A stretch of 64,000 bases of DNA from a virus: the IMG/VR virus record IMGVR_UViG_3300008952_002488, positions 1-64,000 of that record; one strand, 5' to 3'. This document shows positions 43,994 through 62,904 of this stretch, in pieces; the stretch's first letter is position 1, and each line of letters begins with the position of its first letter. The notes below the pieces were generated by a model. It was not told the DNA's origin, did not search any database, and saw only the letters and a list, made by a program, of their open reading frames with translations. Made by a program: the position numbers and the translations under genes.

Positions 43994-44053
43994 TTGGCCG
44001 CCAACCCGCAGGGAGGCACGGGGTACAGGTGTCTCTCCATTTATGGAGATAAA

Positions 44054-45124
44054 ATGGCAAACAAAGCTGGAAACAGCCTTGTAAATGATTTGCGAAGCGA
44101 ATTAAACAAGGCTGCCAAAGAGAATATTGCATACGATTTGCACGGGGACAACCCGACAGACGTGAAGACTTGGATCCCAACGGGTTCGACTCTTCTTGAT
44201 TATATTATTTCTAACCGCCGAGATGGCGGCATTCCTGTCGGCAAACTCACCACGATTGCCGGCGAGTCTGCCAGCGGTAAGAGCCTTGTTGTCACGCAGA
44301 TTTTGGCGAACACACAAAAGATGGGAGGGCTCGCTGTTTACATCGACACAGAGAACGCAGCCTCCCCGGACTTCATGGAACAGTTGGGGCTTGACACCAA
44401 GAACAATTTCTTGTATGTGCAGCCCGGCACGGTCGAGGAAGTGTTTGAGAACATTGAGCGATTGATTGGGCGCATCCGTGAGAAAGCCCCAGACAAACTT
44501 GTTTGTATTGTTTGGGACAGCGTTGCGGGAACACCAGTCAAGGCAGAGGTTGAGGGTGACTATGATCCCAACAGTCGCATTGGTCTGACAGCCAAAGCAC
44601 TAGCCAAGGGTATGCGGAAAGTAACCGAAACGCTCGGCAAGGAGCAGATTGCTCTGGTTTTTACCAACCAGTTAAAGACCAACATCGGCGTGATGTTCGG
44701 AGACAACCGAGTGGAGCCCGGCGGAAAGGCTCTGCCCTATCACGCTTCTGCTCGCATCTGGTTGACCCAACACAAAGGCAAAGCCAATGGACAGATACTA
44801 AACGACAAGAAACAGGTCATCGGCTTCCATACGAGTGCCAAGACCATGAAGTCTCGCTTCGGTCCATCACCAAGGAGTTGTGAGTTTGATGTATTGTTTG
44901 ACCTTGCTAATGACCGAGTTGGAGTTAATGATGAGGGCTCCTGGCTTTCTGCCATCGCTGGTACGCCTGGTTGTGTTCGCAGCGGTGCTTGGTATACAAT
45001 CAACGTTGACGGGGAAGATAAAAAGTTCCAAAGTAAGGACTTTCTAAAACTTCTGGAAGACAAGAAATTCAAAGAAAGAGTTCTTGACATTTTAGAAGAC
45101 GAATGTAGAATAGGTAAGAAGTAA
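44054..45124 (+). CDS. recA: RecA/UvsX recombinase
   Basis: GESASGKS, YIDTENA, WDSVAG, FTNQL, PGGKAL; start reassigned to ATG 44054. Confidence 0.93.
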   Translation: MANKAGNSLVNDLRSELNKAAKENIAYDLHGDNPTDVKTWIPTGSTLLDYIISNRRDGGIPVGKLTTIAGESASGKSLVVTQILANTQKMGGLAVYIDTENAASPDFMEQLGLDTKNNFLYVQPGTVEEVFENIERLIGRIREKAPDKLVCIVWDSVAGTPVKAEVEGDYDPNSRIGLTAKALAKGMRKVTETLGKEQIALVFTNQLKTNIGVMFGDNRVEPGGKALPYHASARIWLTQHKGKANGQILNDKKQVIGFHTSAKTMKSRFGPSPRSCEFDVLFDLANDRVGVNDEGSWLSAIAGTPGCVRSGAWYTINVDGEDKKFQSKDFLKLLEDKKFKERVLDILEDECRIGKK

Positions 45125-56916: not shown

Positions 56917-56947
56917 TTGACAGACTGTCTTTCCATGATAATATAAT
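56917..56947 (+). promoter_or_regulatory. sigma70-like promoter heading the mini-gene array
   Basis: TTGACA followed by TGATAATATAAT. Confidence 0.6.
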
Positions 56948-56962
56948 CATGAGGAGAGAGCC

Positions 56963-57124
56963 ATGAAACCGAAGTTCAAGGAACTCATTAAAATTATCGT
57001 TGAGAACACTGACCCGTCTATGTCTCGCATGGAGGCATGGGAAGCGGTTGCTGTTGTCGTCCCAGAACTGACTTGGGAAAGTTTCAAACGCATTCAGCCC
57101 TTGGCGGAACGGAAGCGCAAGTGA
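56963..57124 (+). CDS. 53-aa hypothetical protein (MKPKFKELIKII...)
   Basis: Manual translation; GAGGAG SD; GTGA overlap. Confidence 0.6.
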   Translation: MKPKFKELIKIIVENTDPSMSRMEAWEAVAVVVPELTWESFKRIQPLAERKRK

Positions 57125-57321
57125 GCAACGAGTGGCGTAAAAACCTGAAGGTCGGCGACCTCGTTATGATGAGGTCAGACCATATGGCTATTCTTACAGA
57201 TGTCAACTGGCGCTCGGAAGATTCAGAGTATCCCCATGTTAAGTTGCGGTACACTGATGACGACAGCAACGGTAGCTGTAGTGCTTGGCGAGTCAAGGAG
57301 GTGTTGAGTGAGAGTCGGTGA
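57121..57321 (+). CDS. GDLV SH3/KOW-like mini-protein 1
   Basis: LKVGDLVMM; ends EVLSESR. Confidence 0.7.
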   Translation: MSNEWRKNLKVGDLVMMRSDHMAILTDVNWRSEDSEYPHVKLRYTDDDSNGSCSAWRVKEVLSESR

Positions 57322-57502
57322 TTTGGTAACGTTCCAGCACGAAATGGACAACTCAGTTTCTGGTGTTATTGTAAAAGTTTATGCCCCACCCAAAAGCCCA
57401 GCGGGCTATATGTGGTGCGACGTTCTCTGGAGCTTTATGCCCGGCAACTCCCCGTGTAAGCAACGCTGGTGTGAATTGGAGATTTTAAATGAAGCCGGGT
57501 GA
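57308..57502 (+). CDS. GDLV SH3/KOW-like mini-protein 2
   Basis: MRVGDLVTF...GVIV...DVLW. Confidence 0.75.
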   Translation: MRVGDLVTFQHEMDNSVSGVIVKVYAPPKSPAGYMWCDVLWSFMPGNSPCKQRWCELEILNEAG

Positions 57503-57659
57503 TTTAGTAAAAGTAACATGGCGTTTTGACACCCCCCGGCTGGGGCTCGTTCTAACAGATCCCGCTGCTGACTTCCCTCAAGTATTGGTTCGGTTGGGAT
57601 GTGGTCGTCGGGTATCTTTTGATTGCGATAGTGTGGAGGTGGTCCGTGAAGCCCGGTGA
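57489..57659 (+). CDS. GDLV SH3/KOW-like mini-protein 3
   Basis: Manual translation MKPGDLVKV...GLVL, 56 aa. Confidence 0.7.
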   Translation: MKPGDLVKVTWRFDTPRLGLVLTDPAADFPQVLVRLGCGRRVSFDCDSVEVVREAR

Positions 57660-57849
57660 TTTGGTAGACGTTTCCCACCGCCGCCGTGAGCGGCACGGGT
57701 ATGGTATTATTACCGAGGTGAGGTCTCGCCATCCCTATGATGACCGCAGCGAGGAACTTCTTGTTACGGTACATCACCCCAAGACAGGGAAGACAACAAA
57801 GTGGAGTTCGCATTGGGTGGAGGTGCTTAGTGAATCTAAAGCCAGGTGA
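57646..57849 (+). CDS. GDLV SH3/KOW-like mini-protein 4
   Basis: MKPGDLVDV...GIIT. Confidence 0.75.
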   Translation: MKPGDLVDVSHRRRERHGYGIITEVRSRHPYDDRSEELLVTVHHPKTGKTTKWSSHWVEVLSESKAR

Positions 57850-58042
57850 CTTAGTAGAGCCCAACTGGAGTGCTAGCGAAGTCCCCCACATCAAAGAGAG
57901 GCACGGTCGGCAACTGGGTCTTGTTCTTTCATATCCCGAAGTCAAAAACCACGGCACAACCTGTGTAAAAGTTAATTGGCTTGGCTACGAACTGGAAGAA
58001 TATTATTCTGTCCATCATTTGAGGTTGGTAGAAAATGAATAG
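57830..58042 (+). CDS. GDLV SH3/KOW-like mini-protein 5
   Basis: MNLKPGDLVE...GLVL...VKVNW. Confidence 0.75.
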   Translation: MNLKPGDLVEPNWSASEVPHIKERHGRQLGLVLSYPEVKNHGTTCVKVNWLGYELEEYYSVHHLRLVENE

Positions 58043-58268
58043 ATATAACGGGGCAGAGTTCACATATAATATTGGCGACCTCGTGTCCTTTATGCAGCGT
58101 CGTGTGACCGAGGATTATGTTGATGACTTTTTGCTGACTGGCATTATAATCAGGGAGCGTTTTGTTTTTACTGCCGACAATAAGTTCTTGGTCAAGACTC
58201 CAGAAAAAGATTATTGGGTTTCAAGACCAGCCCTAACTTTACTTTCAAAGGCAGAAAATAAAACTTGA
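58035..58268 (+). CDS. GDLV SH3/KOW-like mini-protein 6
   Basis: YNIGDLVSF...GIII. Confidence 0.7.
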   Translation: MNRYNGAEFTYNIGDLVSFMQRRVTEDYVDDFLLTGIIIRERFVFTADNKFLVKTPEKDYWVSRPALTLLSKAENKT

Positions 58269-58309
58269 CAAGAGCCATAGTCATGTTAAGATACTATTGG
58301 AGAGAGCCT

Positions 58310-58543
58310 ATGAGCCTGGTAAAAGAAATCCAGAAACGCTGCCACATCCAGCCTGGTATGTTGGTCAGGAGCAGCGGAGGCAGCGAAATCAATAAACTTG
58401 CTTTGGTTGTCGGACTATCTCCCTCGTGTAAGTTTGACCGAGACTACGAAGGAGCAGAGGACCACATCTTCTACAAGTGCGAGCCTTTTGACGGCACGCC
58501 AGCCTTTGTAGACTACGCTTGTAACATGGAGCAGGTATCATGA
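58310..58543 (+). CDS. SH3/KOW-like mini-protein 7
   Basis: IQPGMLVRS...ALVV; own promoter at 58265. Confidence 0.65.
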   Translation: MSLVKEIQKRCHIQPGMLVRSSGGSEINKLALVVGLSPSCKFDRDYEGAEDHIFYKCEPFDGTPAFVDYACNMEQVS

Positions 58544-58782
58544 AAGTCGGACAGATTATTAAAGTAAATAAGTCTGGTCTGGCTCATTTTGCTCCCGGCA
58601 TCCGCCGCAGGCTTGAAGGAGAGATTGGACTAGTTGTCCAGCAAAAGTACGAACTGGCTCACAAGCTCTTGAAGAATACCAAGGTCTATCCATCCATTGT
58701 CCGTTTTGAGGCTCTCAAAGGACTTGACATGTACGCAGACGGCGTTATGATATTTGATGACCAAGCGGAGATTTTATCATGA
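58540..58782 (+). CDS. SH3/KOW-like mini-protein 8
   Basis: MKVGQIIKV...GLVV. Confidence 0.7.
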   Translation: MKVGQIIKVNKSGLAHFAPGIRRRLEGEIGLVVQQKYELAHKLLKNTKVYPSIVRFEALKGLDMYADGVMIFDDQAEILS

Positions 58783-58952
58783 AACTTGGAACACTAGTCC
58801 AGTTCGCAGCCTACGGGGCGGTCATGGATACTGGCTATGTTTCAAAGTATGATGAGGACCCAGGGTTCATGTGGGTAGAGTGCGTGAAGATGGGACCTCA
58901 GCGAGTCAGTAAAGACAGTACGATGTTGGAGGTGGTAAGTGAAGCCGGGTGA
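58779..58952 (+). CDS. SH3/KOW-like mini-protein 9
   Basis: Manual translation MKLGTLVQF...EVVSEAG. Confidence 0.65.
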   Translation: MKLGTLVQFAAYGAVMDTGYVSKYDEDPGFMWVECVKMGPQRVSKDSTMLEVVSEAG

Positions 58953-59136
58953 TTTGGTTCGCATTCGCAAAACCTCTATTGACCATCTGTCTGCCAACTG
59001 GTTTATCTGGCACGCAGAGCACAAGACCCCGCTGGTTTTGATTGAAGAGCTAAACAAAAGTTATTGGAATGTGCTGAAGCCTGATGGCAGTACGGTACAC
59101 ATCCACAAAACCCACCTGACGAAGAGGATGTATTGA
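58939..59136 (+). CDS. GDLV SH3/KOW-like mini-protein 10
   Basis: MKPGDLVRI. Confidence 0.75.
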   Translation: MKPGDLVRIRKTSIDHLSANWFIWHAEHKTPLVLIEELNKSYWNVLKPDGSTVHIHKTHLTKRMY

Positions 59137-59333
59137 TGAATCCCGAATGGAAAAGATATAAAGTCGGAGACTTGGTAGCGGTTGCTGCTAATCAAGTGCT
59201 GGGTCTTATCACTCGCTCCAACTACTGGGCTCTTGATGAATATCTCGGCGGTGAGATTGAGTGCGTTGATGTGATGTTCGGAGCACACGAATCCAAGCAA
59301 TACCCAGTTCAATATTTGGTGGACTTGAAGTAA
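59136..59333 (+). CDS. GDLV SH3/KOW-like mini-protein 11
   Basis: YKVGDLVAV...GLIT. Confidence 0.7.
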   Translation: MNPEWKRYKVGDLVAVAANQVLGLITRSNYWALDEYLGGEIECVDVMFGAHESKQYPVQYLVDLK

Positions 59334-59413
59334 TGAGCGAGCTAATCGGCGGCATCTTTTACGGCACTATCATCGGAGGCTACATCCTCTGGTTTTGGGG
59401 GCGCATCCGATGA
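59333..59413 (+). CDS. 26-aa single-TM peptide (MSELIGGIFYGTIIGGYILWFWGRIR)
   Basis: Manual translation; TAATG overlap at the start and ATGA overlap at the end. Confidence 0.5.
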   Translation: MSELIGGIFYGTIIGGYILWFWGRIR

Positions 59414-59652
59414 AGACCTCCCCCCGCCAAGTTGAGTACCTACCTGACCACCACTTCAAGGTCGGCGATATCGTAAGGCGATTTGTAATCGGCGGTAAAG
59501 ACAGGCTCGGCGTTGTGCTGGGAACAGGAAAAAAGACGATGAACTACACGACATTACAAATGAATGAAGACGCCTGCCTAATATCTTTTGATAATGAAGA
59601 GCCAGTGTGGGAAGCGGCATATTTTCTGGAAAAAGTTGATGCCAAGTACTGA
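59410..59652 (+). CDS. GDIV SH3/KOW-like mini-protein 12
   Basis: FKVGDIVRR...GVVL. Confidence 0.7.
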   Translation: MKTSPRQVEYLPDHHFKVGDIVRRFVIGGKDRLGVVLGTGKKTMNYTTLQMNEDACLISFDNEEPVWEAAYFLEKVDAKY

Positions 59653-59845
59653 TTTAAAGATTGGCACCCTGCTCCGAGTGAAGGAGCACTGCCGAAATAA
59701 TATAACCGTCAGGCATAATGGCGAGTATGGTATTCTGGCACGAAACGATAAGGGAAACTATATTACACACGATGTTATATTCCCCACTGGCGAGCGAGTT
59801 ATTTTTATGCCTATCAATTGGGAGGTAGTCAGCCATGCTGGATAG
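59639..59845 (+). CDS. SH3/KOW-like mini-protein 13
   Basis: LKIGTLLRV...GIL...WEVVS. Confidence 0.65.
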   Translation: MPSTDLKIGTLLRVKEHCRNNITVRHNGEYGILARNDKGNYITHDVIFPTGERVIFMPINWEVVSHAG

Positions 59846-60104
59846 CAGCGATAAGATGTGGGCGGTTCAACAGCCTGGAACTATTTTACGAGCCCGTCAT
59901 AGTGCTAAGTACGGACAACTGGCTCTGGTTCTTGCCCGAGCCTATGATGGCCCGAAGCCAAGCAACGGCTATCCCCCCCGCCAGTATGTGAAGATGCAGT
60001 GGCTCTCAACTGGCGAGCGGTTTGAAGAAATGTTAGTAAATGCTCATAATTGTTTTGACATTGTGAGTTCCTGTGATACACTATCCAACAAGGAGGAAGT
60101 ATGA
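59835..60104 (+). CDS. SH3/KOW-like mini-protein 14
   Basis: QPGTILRA...ALVL...VKMQW. Confidence 0.65.
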   Translation: MLDSSDKMWAVQQPGTILRARHSAKYGQLALVLARAYDGPKPSNGYPPRQYVKMQWLSTGERFEEMLVNAHNCFDIVSSCDTLSNKEEV

Positions 60105-60268
60105 AACTATCGCTTAACACTAAAGTCGTAGATGACAAAACTGGGCTGGAGGGTCGGACTATTGGGCCTTTCACTCGCAAGGGAGAGCAGTGGTGGACTG
60201 TCTATTGGCGAAACGGTCAGACAACCTCCCAACGAGAAGAGGATCTCAACCAGTGTCAAACAATTTAA
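60101..60268 (+). CDS. SH3-like mini-protein 15 (MKLSLNTKVVD...WTVYW)
   Basis: Manual translation; AGGAGG SD; promoter at 60055. Confidence 0.6.
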   Translation: MKLSLNTKVVDDKTGLEGRTIGPFTRKGEQWWTVYWRNGQTTSQREEDLNQCQTI

Positions 60269-61446
60269 CGAAAAAAGCTGAACTCGTTGCCGAAATGGAA
60301 GCAGGAATTAAGGTAGCTGAGGAGTTTGAGAAGGCTGGTGCGTTTTACGGAGACTCCAAAGACCTGCGGCAAGAAAAGGACCGAGAAGTCGCAGAGTTCT
60401 CTCAGACGCTAAACGATGGGCAAAGAATCAAGTTCCAGAAGGAACTGGACAGACTAGAGCTTCTATCCCGTTCGAGCGGGGCGAGCATCGCCACGTCTAT
60501 ACTTTCGTTGGACGCCTATATCAAAGGGAAGAGTAAAGTAAAAGTGGAGTTCTGGGGTCGGGAGGGGCTCAAAGAAGGGGTTGGACAAAAGACCGACCTA
60601 AAGACAACTCTCATCAACCCCAATCTCGACGAGATGGTTTATAGCTTTTCCCTGAAACAGTACCGTAGGTCCGGACGCATTCAGGTTGGATCGGGCACCT
60701 ATTTGTCCACCTTTCTGGGGCTAGCGTATGACGTTGCTGGGCGAGGACGTTACCAGTCCCATGATAAAGAGCGGACTTTTGGCTCGAAAGGGAAATGCGA
60801 AGATGCCCGAGCCGAGATCCTCAAAGATTACGGCGTGGAATCTGCCAAGCTTTTGGATGAACTGGTGATTTTAACCGCTGGCGTAGCGGCCCTTCGTGGC
60901 AATAAAGTGTATCCGGGTGATGACTGGTGGAAAAAGAAATGTAAGGGTTTTACAGAATCGGCTGTTCCCATTTTTGAAAAATGGTTTAATTTCTTGCTTG
61001 AGCACGACCAAGATAAATTTATAGAACGTATTTTTCACCGAGCCGGTCTCGGGTGCGAGCATGAAACGGTGGTGACTTTCTGCCAAAACGGCGAGCCCCG
61101 GACCCTGAACACCTTGAGTGATCCGACGTTTGCGAAGACTATGAAAATTGGAAAAATTCCGATCAACCAACTCGAAGTGGAGACTAAGAGGTCCGGACAG
61201 GGTGAGGACGGGTGCAGCATTGATGTGAGGTTGCATCATACAACCTCCGGAAAGAGTTCGCCTTTAATGGAGTTGCAAATTCCCTTCACCCTCAATCGTA
61301 ATGGGGCATGGCAGTTGTGCAATGAAGCAGGGCGTTGGTGTAAAAAGGACAAGCAATTTGTTGAGTTTGGACACTTGCGCCCGGAAAAGTCTAAAGAATT
61401 GGCCACATCCACAAATATGTGGCTGAAAGTGCCTTTGGGCAAATAG
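60253..61446 (+). CDS. putative PD-(D/E)xK restriction endonuclease
   Basis: KTD...YSFSLK motif; adjacent to a methyltransferase. Confidence 0.45.
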   Translation: MSNNLTKKAELVAEMEAGIKVAEEFEKAGAFYGDSKDLRQEKDREVAEFSQTLNDGQRIKFQKELDRLELLSRSSGASIATSILSLDAYIKGKSKVKVEFWGREGLKEGVGQKTDLKTTLINPNLDEMVYSFSLKQYRRSGRIQVGSGTYLSTFLGLAYDVAGRGRYQSHDKERTFGSKGKCEDARAEILKDYGVESAKLLDELVILTAGVAALRGNKVYPGDDWWKKKCKGFTESAVPIFEKWFNFLLEHDQDKFIERIFHRAGLGCEHETVVTFCQNGEPRTLNTLSDPTFAKTMKIGKIPINQLEVETKRSGQGEDGCSIDVRLHHTTSGKSSPLMELQIPFTLNRNGAWQLCNEAGRWCKKDKQFVEFGHLRPEKSKELATSTNMWLKVPLGK

Positions 61447-61467
61447 CGACGTGGAGGGGACAGTAAA

Positions 61468-62904
61468 GTGAGACGTGTAGTTGTGGGTAACCCCCCTTTT
61501 CAAAACCGGGAAAAGCAAGGGAAAACCCAACATAAAGTGTGGATCAAAATGACTCAGACTATCTTTGACCAAATGGACGAAGGAGACATTTTGCTGTGGA
61601 TAAGCCCTCAGAGTTGGTCATCGCCTAGCAATAAAATATTAAAGCTGATGAGGGAAAATCAGGTTAACTATGTGTCTCTCAATACCGACGAATACTTTGA
61701 GGGAATTGGTTCCTCGTTTAGTGACTACTCTATCACAAAAACTTCCGCACCCTCTGCGAACCCTACGCTAGTGTCGGATCGCAACCACACCCCGTGTCAT
61801 ATTGCTTTTAAAGATCTTTTTTATCTTCCTAACGATGTGTGTGCGCTGTCATTATCTATTCACAATAAGGTTATGTTTGGGGGCTGTGATTGTTTGGATG
61901 TTCGGCATGATTATGTAACCAATCATAATATTTTGTTACGGACAGGAACAACGCTTTCCAAGACTCCTACCTCACAACACATTTATCCAGTATTTCACAC
62001 TAATCGTCAAACATGGTATTCATCTCTCGAACAAAAGTGCATGACCGAGAAGAAGGTAGTGTGGACCCGGAGCGGATATCTTAAACCATTTTATGATGAC
62101 GGGACGATTGGAATAACGGACATGGCTTATTATATTCCCGTTAAATCTCGCACCAAGGGGGACCGGCTCGTAGAGAACCTGTCTTCTCCGCTGATGAAAT
62201 ATATCTTCACAACCGCTAAGTGGTCTGGTTTTGGAAACGAGCGAGTGTTTGAGCGGTTGCCTGCGGCGCTAGCCTCTCTCCGGAAAGAGGATTTGGCGGA
62301 TCACTTTAATCTGACATCCGACGAAGTGGCTTACATAGAAGAAGAGAGTTGGCGCAAGAAGCCCACGAAGGAGCTTCTTCTTGGTGGAGATTATACGGTC
62401 AAAACCCAAGGCAGGTCGGATATTTACGGAGAAGTGTTTACTCCGCCGGAGTTAGTAAATAAGATGCTTGATAAACTCCCACCGGAGGTCTGGGATCATT
62501 ATGATGAGCCTTGGACTTTTCTTGATCCGGCATGTGGTAATGGTAATTTTTTAGTAGAAGTTCTTCGGCGTCAGCTTGACGCAGGTGTTTTGCCTGCCAC
62601 CGCCCTTGGTTCTGTTTATGGTATTGATATAATGCCGGACAATGTGCTGGAGTGCAGGCAACGCCTTCTTTCCGTGGCTCTCCAGGCGCACATGGAGAGA
62701 GAAGAGGAGGCGAAGAGAGCGAACCCTGATGCTGTTTCTTGCCCATCTGCCGTGACCAAATTATACCTAATAGTGACTGAGCGCATTGCGGTGGCTAATA
62801 GTTTAGAAGATTCTTTGGAGGATGTCTTCCCCTACAGTCCGGACCCAGGGTTCGACTTCTGCGCCAACCGCCACCGCACCCAAAACGAAGGACCCTCAGA
62901 ATGA
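61468..62904 (+). CDS. N6-adenine DNA methyltransferase with circularly permuted motif order
   Basis: VVVGNPPF (motif IV) at the N-terminus; GEVFTP, FLDPACGNGNFL and YGIDI (X, I, II) near the C-terminus. Confidence 0.8.
   Translation: MRRVVVGNPPFQNREKQGKTQHKVWIKMTQTIFDQMDEGDILLWISPQSWSSPSNKILKLMRENQVNYVSLNTDEYFEGIGSSFSDYSITKTSAPSANPTLVSDRNHTPCHIAFKDLFYLPNDVCALSLSIHNKVMFGGCDCLDVRHDYVTNHNILLRTGTTLSKTPTSQHIYPVFHTNRQTWYSSLEQKCMTEKKVVWTRSGYLKPFYDDGTIGITDMAYYIPVKSRTKGDRLVENLSSPLMKYIFTTAKWSGFGNERVFERLPAALASLRKEDLADHFNLTSDEVAYIEEESWRKKPTKELLLGGDYTVKTQGRSDIYGEVFTPPELVNKMLDKLPPEVWDHYDEPWTFLDPACGNGNFLVEVLRRQLDAGVLPATALGSVYGIDIMPDNVLECRQRLLSVALQAHMEREEEAKRANPDAVSCPSAVTKLYLIVTERIAVANSLEDSLEDVFPYSPDPGFDFCANRHRTQNEGPSE

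Follow-up and report, generated by a model that had tools for sequence, protein, structure and literature searches.

The nearest published system to the locus described here is the promoter-early stem-loop (PeSL) cassette of the hyperplastic regions of T4-type phages (Arbiol et al. 2010, PMC2839356; Comeau et al. 2014, PMC4122927). In those regions, small early genes, most of them ORFans, are separated by copies of short conserved motifs, recombination between the copies leads to whole-gene insertions and deletions (indels), replacements and reordering among close relatives, and sigma-70-like early promoters drive the region. The locus studied here resembles them in all of these respects. A different kind of precedent is offered by translationally coupled overlapping gene pairs, such as those of the trp operon, where termination is followed by re-initiation at overlaps of the ATGA or TGATG type. 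Here, we describe an array of small genes in a 64,000-nucleotide (nt) stretch of viral DNA (positions 1 to 64,000 of IMG/VR record IMGVR_UViG_3300008952_002488; this whole stretch is called the window here). Neighbouring genes of the array meet in a repeated element of approximately 24 nt, called the junction here, which codes in both of them. The element is best explained as the common gene-to-gene boundary of about 15 tandem small-barrel genes in an uncultured marine phage, within a hyperplastic region that is early and driven by sigma-70 promoters. Homologous exchange promoted by the junction is the best-supported reading of what the element does. We consider it likely, short of proof.

A search of the window with the pattern GAGRTNNTNNRTGARRNNNGGTGA found it exactly four times, always on the + strand: at 57298, 57479, 57636 and 58929. 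These are the four positions at which a first-pass annotation, made from the sequence alone, had reported the element. The chance expectation is 0, with no match across 100 dinucleotide-preserving shuffles, and the whole 171,926-bp record holds zero extra matches elsewhere. The annotation had also described a copy with a 6-nt insert at 57820. Reading the sequence showed this fifth copy as described, with 6 additional bases (codons N-L) separating the start from AAG-CCA-GGT-GA. We add a sixth, diverged copy at 59629–59652, which has GAA, an ATG at +10, a TGA formed from ACT-GAT and a 14-nt overlap. The boundary between g14 and g15, also newly added, is an 11-nt-overlap variant. With the genes numbered g1 to g16 along the + strand, the six copies are J1 (g1/g2, 57298–57321, with the Shine–Dalgarno (SD) sequence in the E-V codons, a GTG start at 57308 and the TGA at 57319–57321), J2 (g2/g3, 57479–57502, ATG start at 57489), J3 (g3/g4, 57636–57659, GTG start at 57646), J4 (g4/g5, 57820–57849, the copy with the insert, GTG start at 57830), J5 (g9/g10, 58929–58952, GTG start at 58939) and J6 (g13/g14, the diverged copy).

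The geometry of copies 1–5 is constant. The RTG start lies exactly 10 nt beyond the first G of GAG, and the upstream TGA is built from the GGT and GA of the downstream Gly-Asp codons (the T of GGT and the GA of GAY). Both features had been proposed, and both are true of all five copies. Neighbouring genes overlap by 14 nt (20 nt at 57820), and the downstream gene is read in frame +1 with respect to the upstream gene. The upstream gene ends in seven codons (E-V-x-S-E-x-x) that overlie the first codons of the next gene (M-K-P-G-D-L-V), and the upstream stop sits 11–13 nt past the first base of the downstream start. Together with the preceding G, the E-V codons read GGAGGTG, a ribosome-binding site 5 nt ahead of the RTG start. 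The annotation had called these residues the terminal E-V/I of the upstream protein. The codons do encode E-V, but the two residues sit 7 and 6 before the C-terminus (for example, ...E-V-L-S-E-S-R).

Codon choice was analysed at 63 distinct 14-nt-overlap boundaries from the window and its relatives. The Glu site is GAG in 44 of 48 cases (GAA in 4), against 40% GAG genome-wide (p=8e-14). At the Val site, 26 of the 35 GTN codons are GTG, against 19% genome-wide (p=2e-12). It is this GAG/GTG bias that spells GGAGGTG, which agrees with the earlier proposal that the E-V codons double as the SD. The Gly codon is GGT in every Gly-coding case among the 14-nt boundaries. The family genes with a G-D-h-h motif serve as an internal control, since the motif makes the upstream stop in some of them only. 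The codon is GGT in 46/46 cases where it makes the stop and in 9/45 elsewhere (Fisher p=3e-17). In g1 (57121–57321, 66 residues), for example, the GDLV motif is internal and its Gly codon is GGC. Because of the bias in the GAG, GTG and GGT codons, we conclude that selection on synonymous codons maintains the SD and the borrowed stop. At the Pro codon, by contrast, the third base is unconstrained (A/C/G/T = 13/10/9/1). This base sets the last residue of the upstream protein (R, R, G, W), and the upstream C-terminal residues are thus passengers of the downstream start region. A synonymous bias is also present just beyond the overlap, where Leu is TTR in 47 of 54 cases (38% genome-wide) and Val is GTA in 27 of 49 (22% genome-wide). 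It could reflect selection for an A/U-rich start region.

At the junction, the stop lies just past the downstream start and the SD lies inside the upstream open reading frame (ORF), which is the geometry of coupled genes. Re-initiation by back-scanning is an established mechanism for a stop and start arranged in this way. A ribosome stopping at the TGA overlies the next start, 11 nt upstream, which makes termination-reinitiation coupling along the array plausible as judged from the sequence. Ribosomes finishing at the TGA would re-initiate at the start 11 nt back, and each sub-operon would be translated as a chain. We compared the accessibility of the SD and start of the five junctions with that of all 291 called starts in the record. 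They fall at percentiles 0.29–0.83, which is ordinary. Sequestration of the SD in RNA structure was considered as an enforcer of coupling and rejected, as the pairing at the junctions is ordinary.

Relatives of the array were collected by anchoring on the dUTPase gene. This gave 80 viral loci, and the 22 closer loci were gene-called and compared. Small genes in the relatives are linked most often by the 14-nt overlap (59 of 221 distinct boundaries), nearly always with the consensus. Across relatives, the array keeps a backbone of genes, between which lie variable slots where cassettes come, go and move. In the backbone, g14 (59639–59845, 68 residues) is followed by g15 (59835–60104, 89 residues; 11-nt overlap) in 12/12 occurrences, g10 by g11 in 10/12, and g5 (57830–58042, 70 residues) by g6 (58035–58268, 77 residues; 8-nt overlap) in 8/12. 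The neighbours are variable on the left of g5, which has 10 different ones in 12 occurrences, and on the right of g1, which has six in 11. The slot from g1 to g5 is linked wholly by the junction, and it holds 0–5 cassettes across the relatives. The annotation had named a fixed gene order across relatives as the finding that would reduce the overlap to compaction. The order varies.

The window and locus L008 differ by one cassette (n35) between g2 (57308–57502, 64 residues) and g3 (57489–57659, 56 residues). The indel, located at J2, is exactly 178 nt long, or one unit. The single junction of the window is a chimera of the two junctions of L008, and the switch falls inside GGTGATTT. The two genes themselves are very similar in the two arrays. 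The synonymous divergence (dS) is 0.14 for g2 and 0.12 for g3, against 1.8–2.2 for the flanking core genes (dUTPase and methyltransferase) and 0.7–1.1 for other cassettes. DNA identity is approximately 59% over the 22 nt before the J1 core (57294–57315) and 93% across g2 (57316–57497, a stretch running from the J1 core into J2). The g3 segment is 89% identical, and the identity drops to 22% directly past the core of J3. These steps place both ends of a recently exchanged g2–g3 block inside the junction core, the right end at J3.

Cassettes have also changed position. A block (n28–n17) is 93% identical in L016 and L019, yet it is located on opposite sides of g7, following it in one locus and preceding it in the other, and g7 is 71% identical. 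Cassette n29 precedes g5 in L013 and follows g6 in L018. Gene g9 (58779–58952, 57 residues) shares 96% amino acid identity with its counterpart in L013 at a dS of 0.26, against 1.0–1.9 for core genes. The ends of blastn high-scoring segment pairs between arrays cluster from -20 to +30 nt of gene starts, in pairs that are not independent. In assembled contigs of four marine metagenomes, the matches were confined to 33–38 nt at 57633–57665 and 58923–58960, with flanks that are unlike on both sides. Contigs that match the junction alone indicate that it is common to many cassette contexts in nature. At L018:3880–4343, three consecutive junctions are identical variants (K-to-Q, start M-Q-P-G-D) with the same L-E-L-I-N-A-A-R tail, and the cassette bodies are approximately 61% identical. 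This triplet points to local conversion or to repeated use of one junction copy.

Not every relative carries the array after the dUTPase gene. Among L004, L005, L010, L012 and L015, and among L007, L011, L017 and L021, some have a wholly different set of small genes at this place and some have none. In the relatives with none, the y1/n8 genes come directly after the dUTPase gene. A canonical junction is present at another place (L083) on the contig that carries L004, which means that the array can sit elsewhere in the genome.

According to the reading that we favour, the junction copies would act as short homologies for ordinary homologous recombination. A gene of the RecA/UvsX family is present inside the window (43994–45124; PF00154, E 1e-43), and its product is a candidate for the enzyme behind the cassette exchanges. 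Any crossover between two junctions would delete, insert or swap whole genes and at the same time restore the stop, the SD and the start. The encoded proteins are probably small binders, used early in infection as a variable set. The first-pass annotation had proposed that the junctions provide microhomology for indels and shuffling, and had suggested mapping the breakpoints in close relatives. Several ends, those of the n35 indel and of the young g2–g3 block, do fall within the core of approximately 30 nt, and to this extent the proposal stands. As a rule for all breakpoints it does not, since others lie elsewhere.

The exceptions are among a number of points that speak against junction-promoted exchange. 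Gene g8 (58540–58782, 80 residues, ATGA overlap on each side) is precisely absent in L003, L013 and L018, and its indel lies at a 4-nt ATGA overlap with approximately 10 nt of microhomology (TATCRTGAAA). The indel of the mini-ORF g12 likewise lies at a 4-nt ATGA overlap, with 4–5 nt of microhomology. One end of the block that moved between L016 and L019 lies approximately 50 nt inside a cassette. Some pairs with the 14-nt link are invariant, namely g9 followed by g10 (4/4 loci) and g13 followed by g14 (4/4 loci). Frame-breaking indels would be purged, so that selection alone could concentrate the break ends at gene boundaries. The sequences compared are metagenomic contigs of unknown relationship, and the pairs are not independent. 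Concerted evolution of the junctions within a genome was tried as a general rule and rejected (permutation p=0.89). With regard to coupling, the SD and start are no more base-paired than those of other genes, and dependence on upstream translation is therefore unforced, which leaves the statement of the annotation that the overlap enforces coupling unsupported. The strong junction SDs could recruit free subunits and initiate independently.

Several of these observations are what would be expected if the element reflected compaction and common ancestry. The paralogs would have inherited one overlapping boundary through tandem duplication, dual coding would have frozen it, indels away from boundaries would have been purged, and the element would have no role in recombination. 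Dual coding together with the needs of the SD and stop does explain most of the conserved positions. The lack of a general homogenisation of junctions within genomes, the indels at unrelated ATGA boundaries and the invariant 14-nt-linked pairs all fit such a history. It does not account for the Leu TTR and Val GTA bias, which lies just outside the overlap. The n35 indel and the two ends of the young block share one 12-nt core, which is more than a position at a gene boundary would require. The identical variant junctions of the L018 triplet stand between diverged cassettes, and the most variable slot is the one that is linked entirely by the junction. On balance we regard a history of compaction and ancestry without exchange as unlikely. 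A stronger version of the favoured reading sees in the junction a recombination module that has evolved as such and renews itself, and in the array a population-level generator of a repertoire of SH3-like binders, reshuffled in frame among co-infecting phages without loss of expression, for host takeover or counter-defence. The array would then be the phage equivalent of variation systems built on cassettes. We put this forward tentatively, as a possibility that is more doubtful than probable.

Two other explanations take the junction to be a signal, for the ribosome or for a dedicated enzyme. The downstream frame is +1 and the stop enters the A site after a G-rich codon, and slippage at NGG-TGA into that frame would join the barrels into a bead-on-string polyprotein. 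Natural proteins with two family units fused in frame do occur, rarely, in metagenomes. P0162 (127 residues), P0226 and P0229 are of this kind, with lengths of 109–127 residues and sequences such as ...L-E-V-V-K-Q-V-K-V-G-D-L-V... These fusions show that mutations of the junction can fuse neighbouring genes. The putative slippery codon varies freely (GGG, CGG, AGG, TGG) with the third base of Pro. In prfB, the SD lies approximately 3 nt ahead of the stop. At the junction it is 14 nt ahead. With so variable a codon ahead of the stop and so distant an SD, a prfB-like +1 frameshift was rejected. Every unit has also kept an RTG start at the ideal distance from the SD, which argues against slippage. 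A word-index search for longer forms was empty, which is weak evidence. An exhaustive search then showed a few two-domain proteins and some long multi-stretch ones, among them P0127 and P0131 of 6411 and 559 residues. Overall, we find programmed frameshifting highly improbable.

We attach equally little weight to a site-specific system of the integron type, in which a dedicated recombinase or homing enzyme would recognise the junction. A short conserved site at every cassette boundary and cassettes that change position are what such a system would produce. Tyrosine and serine recombinases were looked for in the 172-kb record (PF00589 among the searches) and none was found, a weak negative in a record that is approximately 60% complete. 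The junction lacks an attC-like inverted repeat, and predicted base pairing around it is ordinary. The crossovers are distributed over the common bases, as in homologous exchange, and break ends occur at other boundaries also.

Fifteen of the 16 genes of the array align as one paralogous family of 55–90 residues, with an N-terminal K-x-G-D-L-V strand, a central hydrophobic G-h-V-h strand and a C-terminal E-V-h-S motif. A hidden Markov model (HMM) of the family, run against the six-frame translation of the record, recovered all members. The same HMM found a looser second cluster of four members outside the window, at approximately 88.85–89.99 kb of the record (88854–89990). Its proteins begin with sequences such as VKAGDLVEV and MKVGDLVEF, and its genes are linked by 4-nt overlaps or gaps, with no 14-nt junction. 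Two strong promoters, at 86012 and 87174, lie upstream of this cluster. In the related arrays, 177 of 324 small genes belong to the family. A wider search gave 282 word-index matches, and 170 representatives at 50% identity, nearly all of 54–90 residues. For ortholog pairs of the mini-genes, the ratio of nonsynonymous to synonymous substitution (dN/dS) is 0.06–0.37, against 0.04–0.09 for the polymerase, methyltransferase and dUTPase. The mini-genes are thus real genes under purifying selection, and they evolve faster than the core.

Ten members were searched against Pfam and PHROGs, and no family was matched at E<=0.05. The ESM Atlas gave only clusters of hypothetical proteins and a sub-threshold lead to DsrB. 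The AlphaFold2 model of g3, made from a 64-sequence alignment, has five strands arranged as an SH3-like barrel, with a predicted local distance difference test (pLDDT) score of 92.5. Foldseek matched this model to structures including the PHF1 Tudor and Spt5 KOW domains, with template modelling (TM) scores of 0.81–0.84. VIA-align gave Z-scores of 8.7 for the PHF19 Tudor, 8.6 for the Spt5 KOW and 8.1 for the NusG KOW domain (root-mean-square deviation 1.3–2.3 over 50–55 residues). A Z-score near 8 is borderline by the guidance of the tool itself, so the assignment of a barrel is a claim at the level of fold only. A profile search of PDB sequences returned only weak KOW matches (uL24 and Spt5 KOW, E 0.03–0.07; best uL24, E=0.027). 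The predicted fold of the family is a five-strand barrel of the SH3/Tudor/KOW type, from which function is not transferable.

The ORFs tile the array as 16 small genes on the + strand (57121–60268), preceded by a leader gene, b53 (56963–57124, 53 residues), which is outside the family and has a 4-nt GTGA overlap with g1. The chain has one break, a gap of 41 nt after g6 (58269–58309). Every other boundary is an overlap of 1, 4, 8, 11, 14 or 20 nt. Family membership from the alignment and profile also covers g4 (57646–57849, 67 residues), g7 (58310–58543, 77 residues), g10 (58939–59136, 65 residues), g13 (59410–59652, 80 residues), g14 and the last member, g16 (60101–60268, 55 residues). Gene g11 (59136–59333, 65 residues) has a 1-nt overlap with g10. 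The 26-residue hydrophobic mini-ORF g12 (59333–59413) is the gene outside the family, with overlaps of 1 nt with g11 and 4 nt with g13. In L002 it is conserved at 100% identity, whereas L001, L003, L008 and L013 lack it precisely. The sequence of g12 is single-helix-like, and the gene resembles a moron that was inserted separately where two genes meet. Downstream of the array (60253–62904), there is an ORF of 397 residues without a PHROG match and a methyltransferase-like ORF of 478 residues beginning V-V-V-G-N-P-P-F.

Seven near-identical extended -10 sigma-70-like promoters are present in the record, all on the + strand. They consist of an upstream A-rich stretch, TTGACA, 16 nt and TG-n-TAnnnT. 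Three are in the array, at 56917, 58265 and 60055, and the others are at 86012, 87174, 100096 and 103984. They are probably an early promoter class of the phage, and those in the array suggest early transcription by the host polymerase. The site at 56917–56944 (TTGACA, 16 nt, TG-n-TAATAT), a match to the consensus only, precedes the first sub-operon (b53 and g1–g6). The site at 58265–58292, whose end overlaps the gap in the chain, precedes the second sub-operon (g7–g16).

The source record is approximately 60% complete (CheckV), and the runs that contain the stretch are marine or seawater metagenomes. It encodes a terminase, a portal protein and a major head protein that all score as T4-like, together with a DnaB-like helicase and a ribonucleotide reductase. 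The DnaE-like polymerase is at most 31% identical to that of any cultured phage, and has no close cultured relative. With the array as query, blastn found no match among 50,697 phage records of GenBank.

The hyperplastic regions of phages hold most of the unknown genes of the virosphere, and their turnover is known in detail only for the PeSLs of T4-type coliphages. If junction-promoted exchange is true, the substrate of turnover is a dual-coding overlap of stop, SD and start, and every exchange automatically yields expressible genes. It would also explain how abundant marine phages can maintain a large and rapidly changing repertoire built on one small-barrel scaffold. The junction is a defined module of approximately 30 nt, directly testable for coupling and for recombination. 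The family is compact and folds well (more than 170 clusters at 50% identity), and its targets may reveal new host-takeover or anti-defence interactions.

A search of a restricted literature collection returned no published description of this array, and it is best placed by comparison with systems that resemble parts of it. The proteins are like the KOW, Tudor and SH3-like barrels (NusG and Spt5 KOW, PHF1 Tudor, uL24) in having a five-strand barrel of approximately 55 residues, and their G-D-x-V first strand resembles the KOW motif. They differ in being stand-alone mini-proteins without flanking domains, and in lacking a Pfam or PHROG match even at E 1. The array is like an integron in that its cassettes are small, carry one gene and no promoter, meet at a short conserved site and vary in content and order. 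Unlike in integrons, no integrase was found here (PF00589 was unmatched in the approximately 60% complete record), there is no attC-like folded site and the exchange looks homologous. The boundary is coding and overlapping, and the cassettes are paralogs, whereas integrons carry unrelated genes. With coupled gene pairs the junction shares an upstream stop a few nt from the downstream start and an SD embedded in the upstream coding sequence. Here, the overlap is 14 nt instead of 1 or 4, and it repeats as one conserved module along an array of paralogs.

The comparison with PeSLs is the closest. As with PeSLs, the copies are surrounded by small non-core genes of a hyperplastic region, and the indels and replacements seen in relatives end at copies. 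The composition is different. The repeated junction lies inside two overlapping ORFs and has neither promoter hexamers nor a stem-loop, and the promoters at 56917 and 58265 are separate from it. The mini-circles of PeSLs have been shown physically, whereas the present array was analysed in assembled contigs. PeSLs separate unrelated ORFans, whereas all cassettes here come from one protein family. PeSLs are intergenic and regulatory, made of a promoter and a terminator stem-loop, whereas the repeat described here is coding in two frames and carries the SD, the start and the stop.

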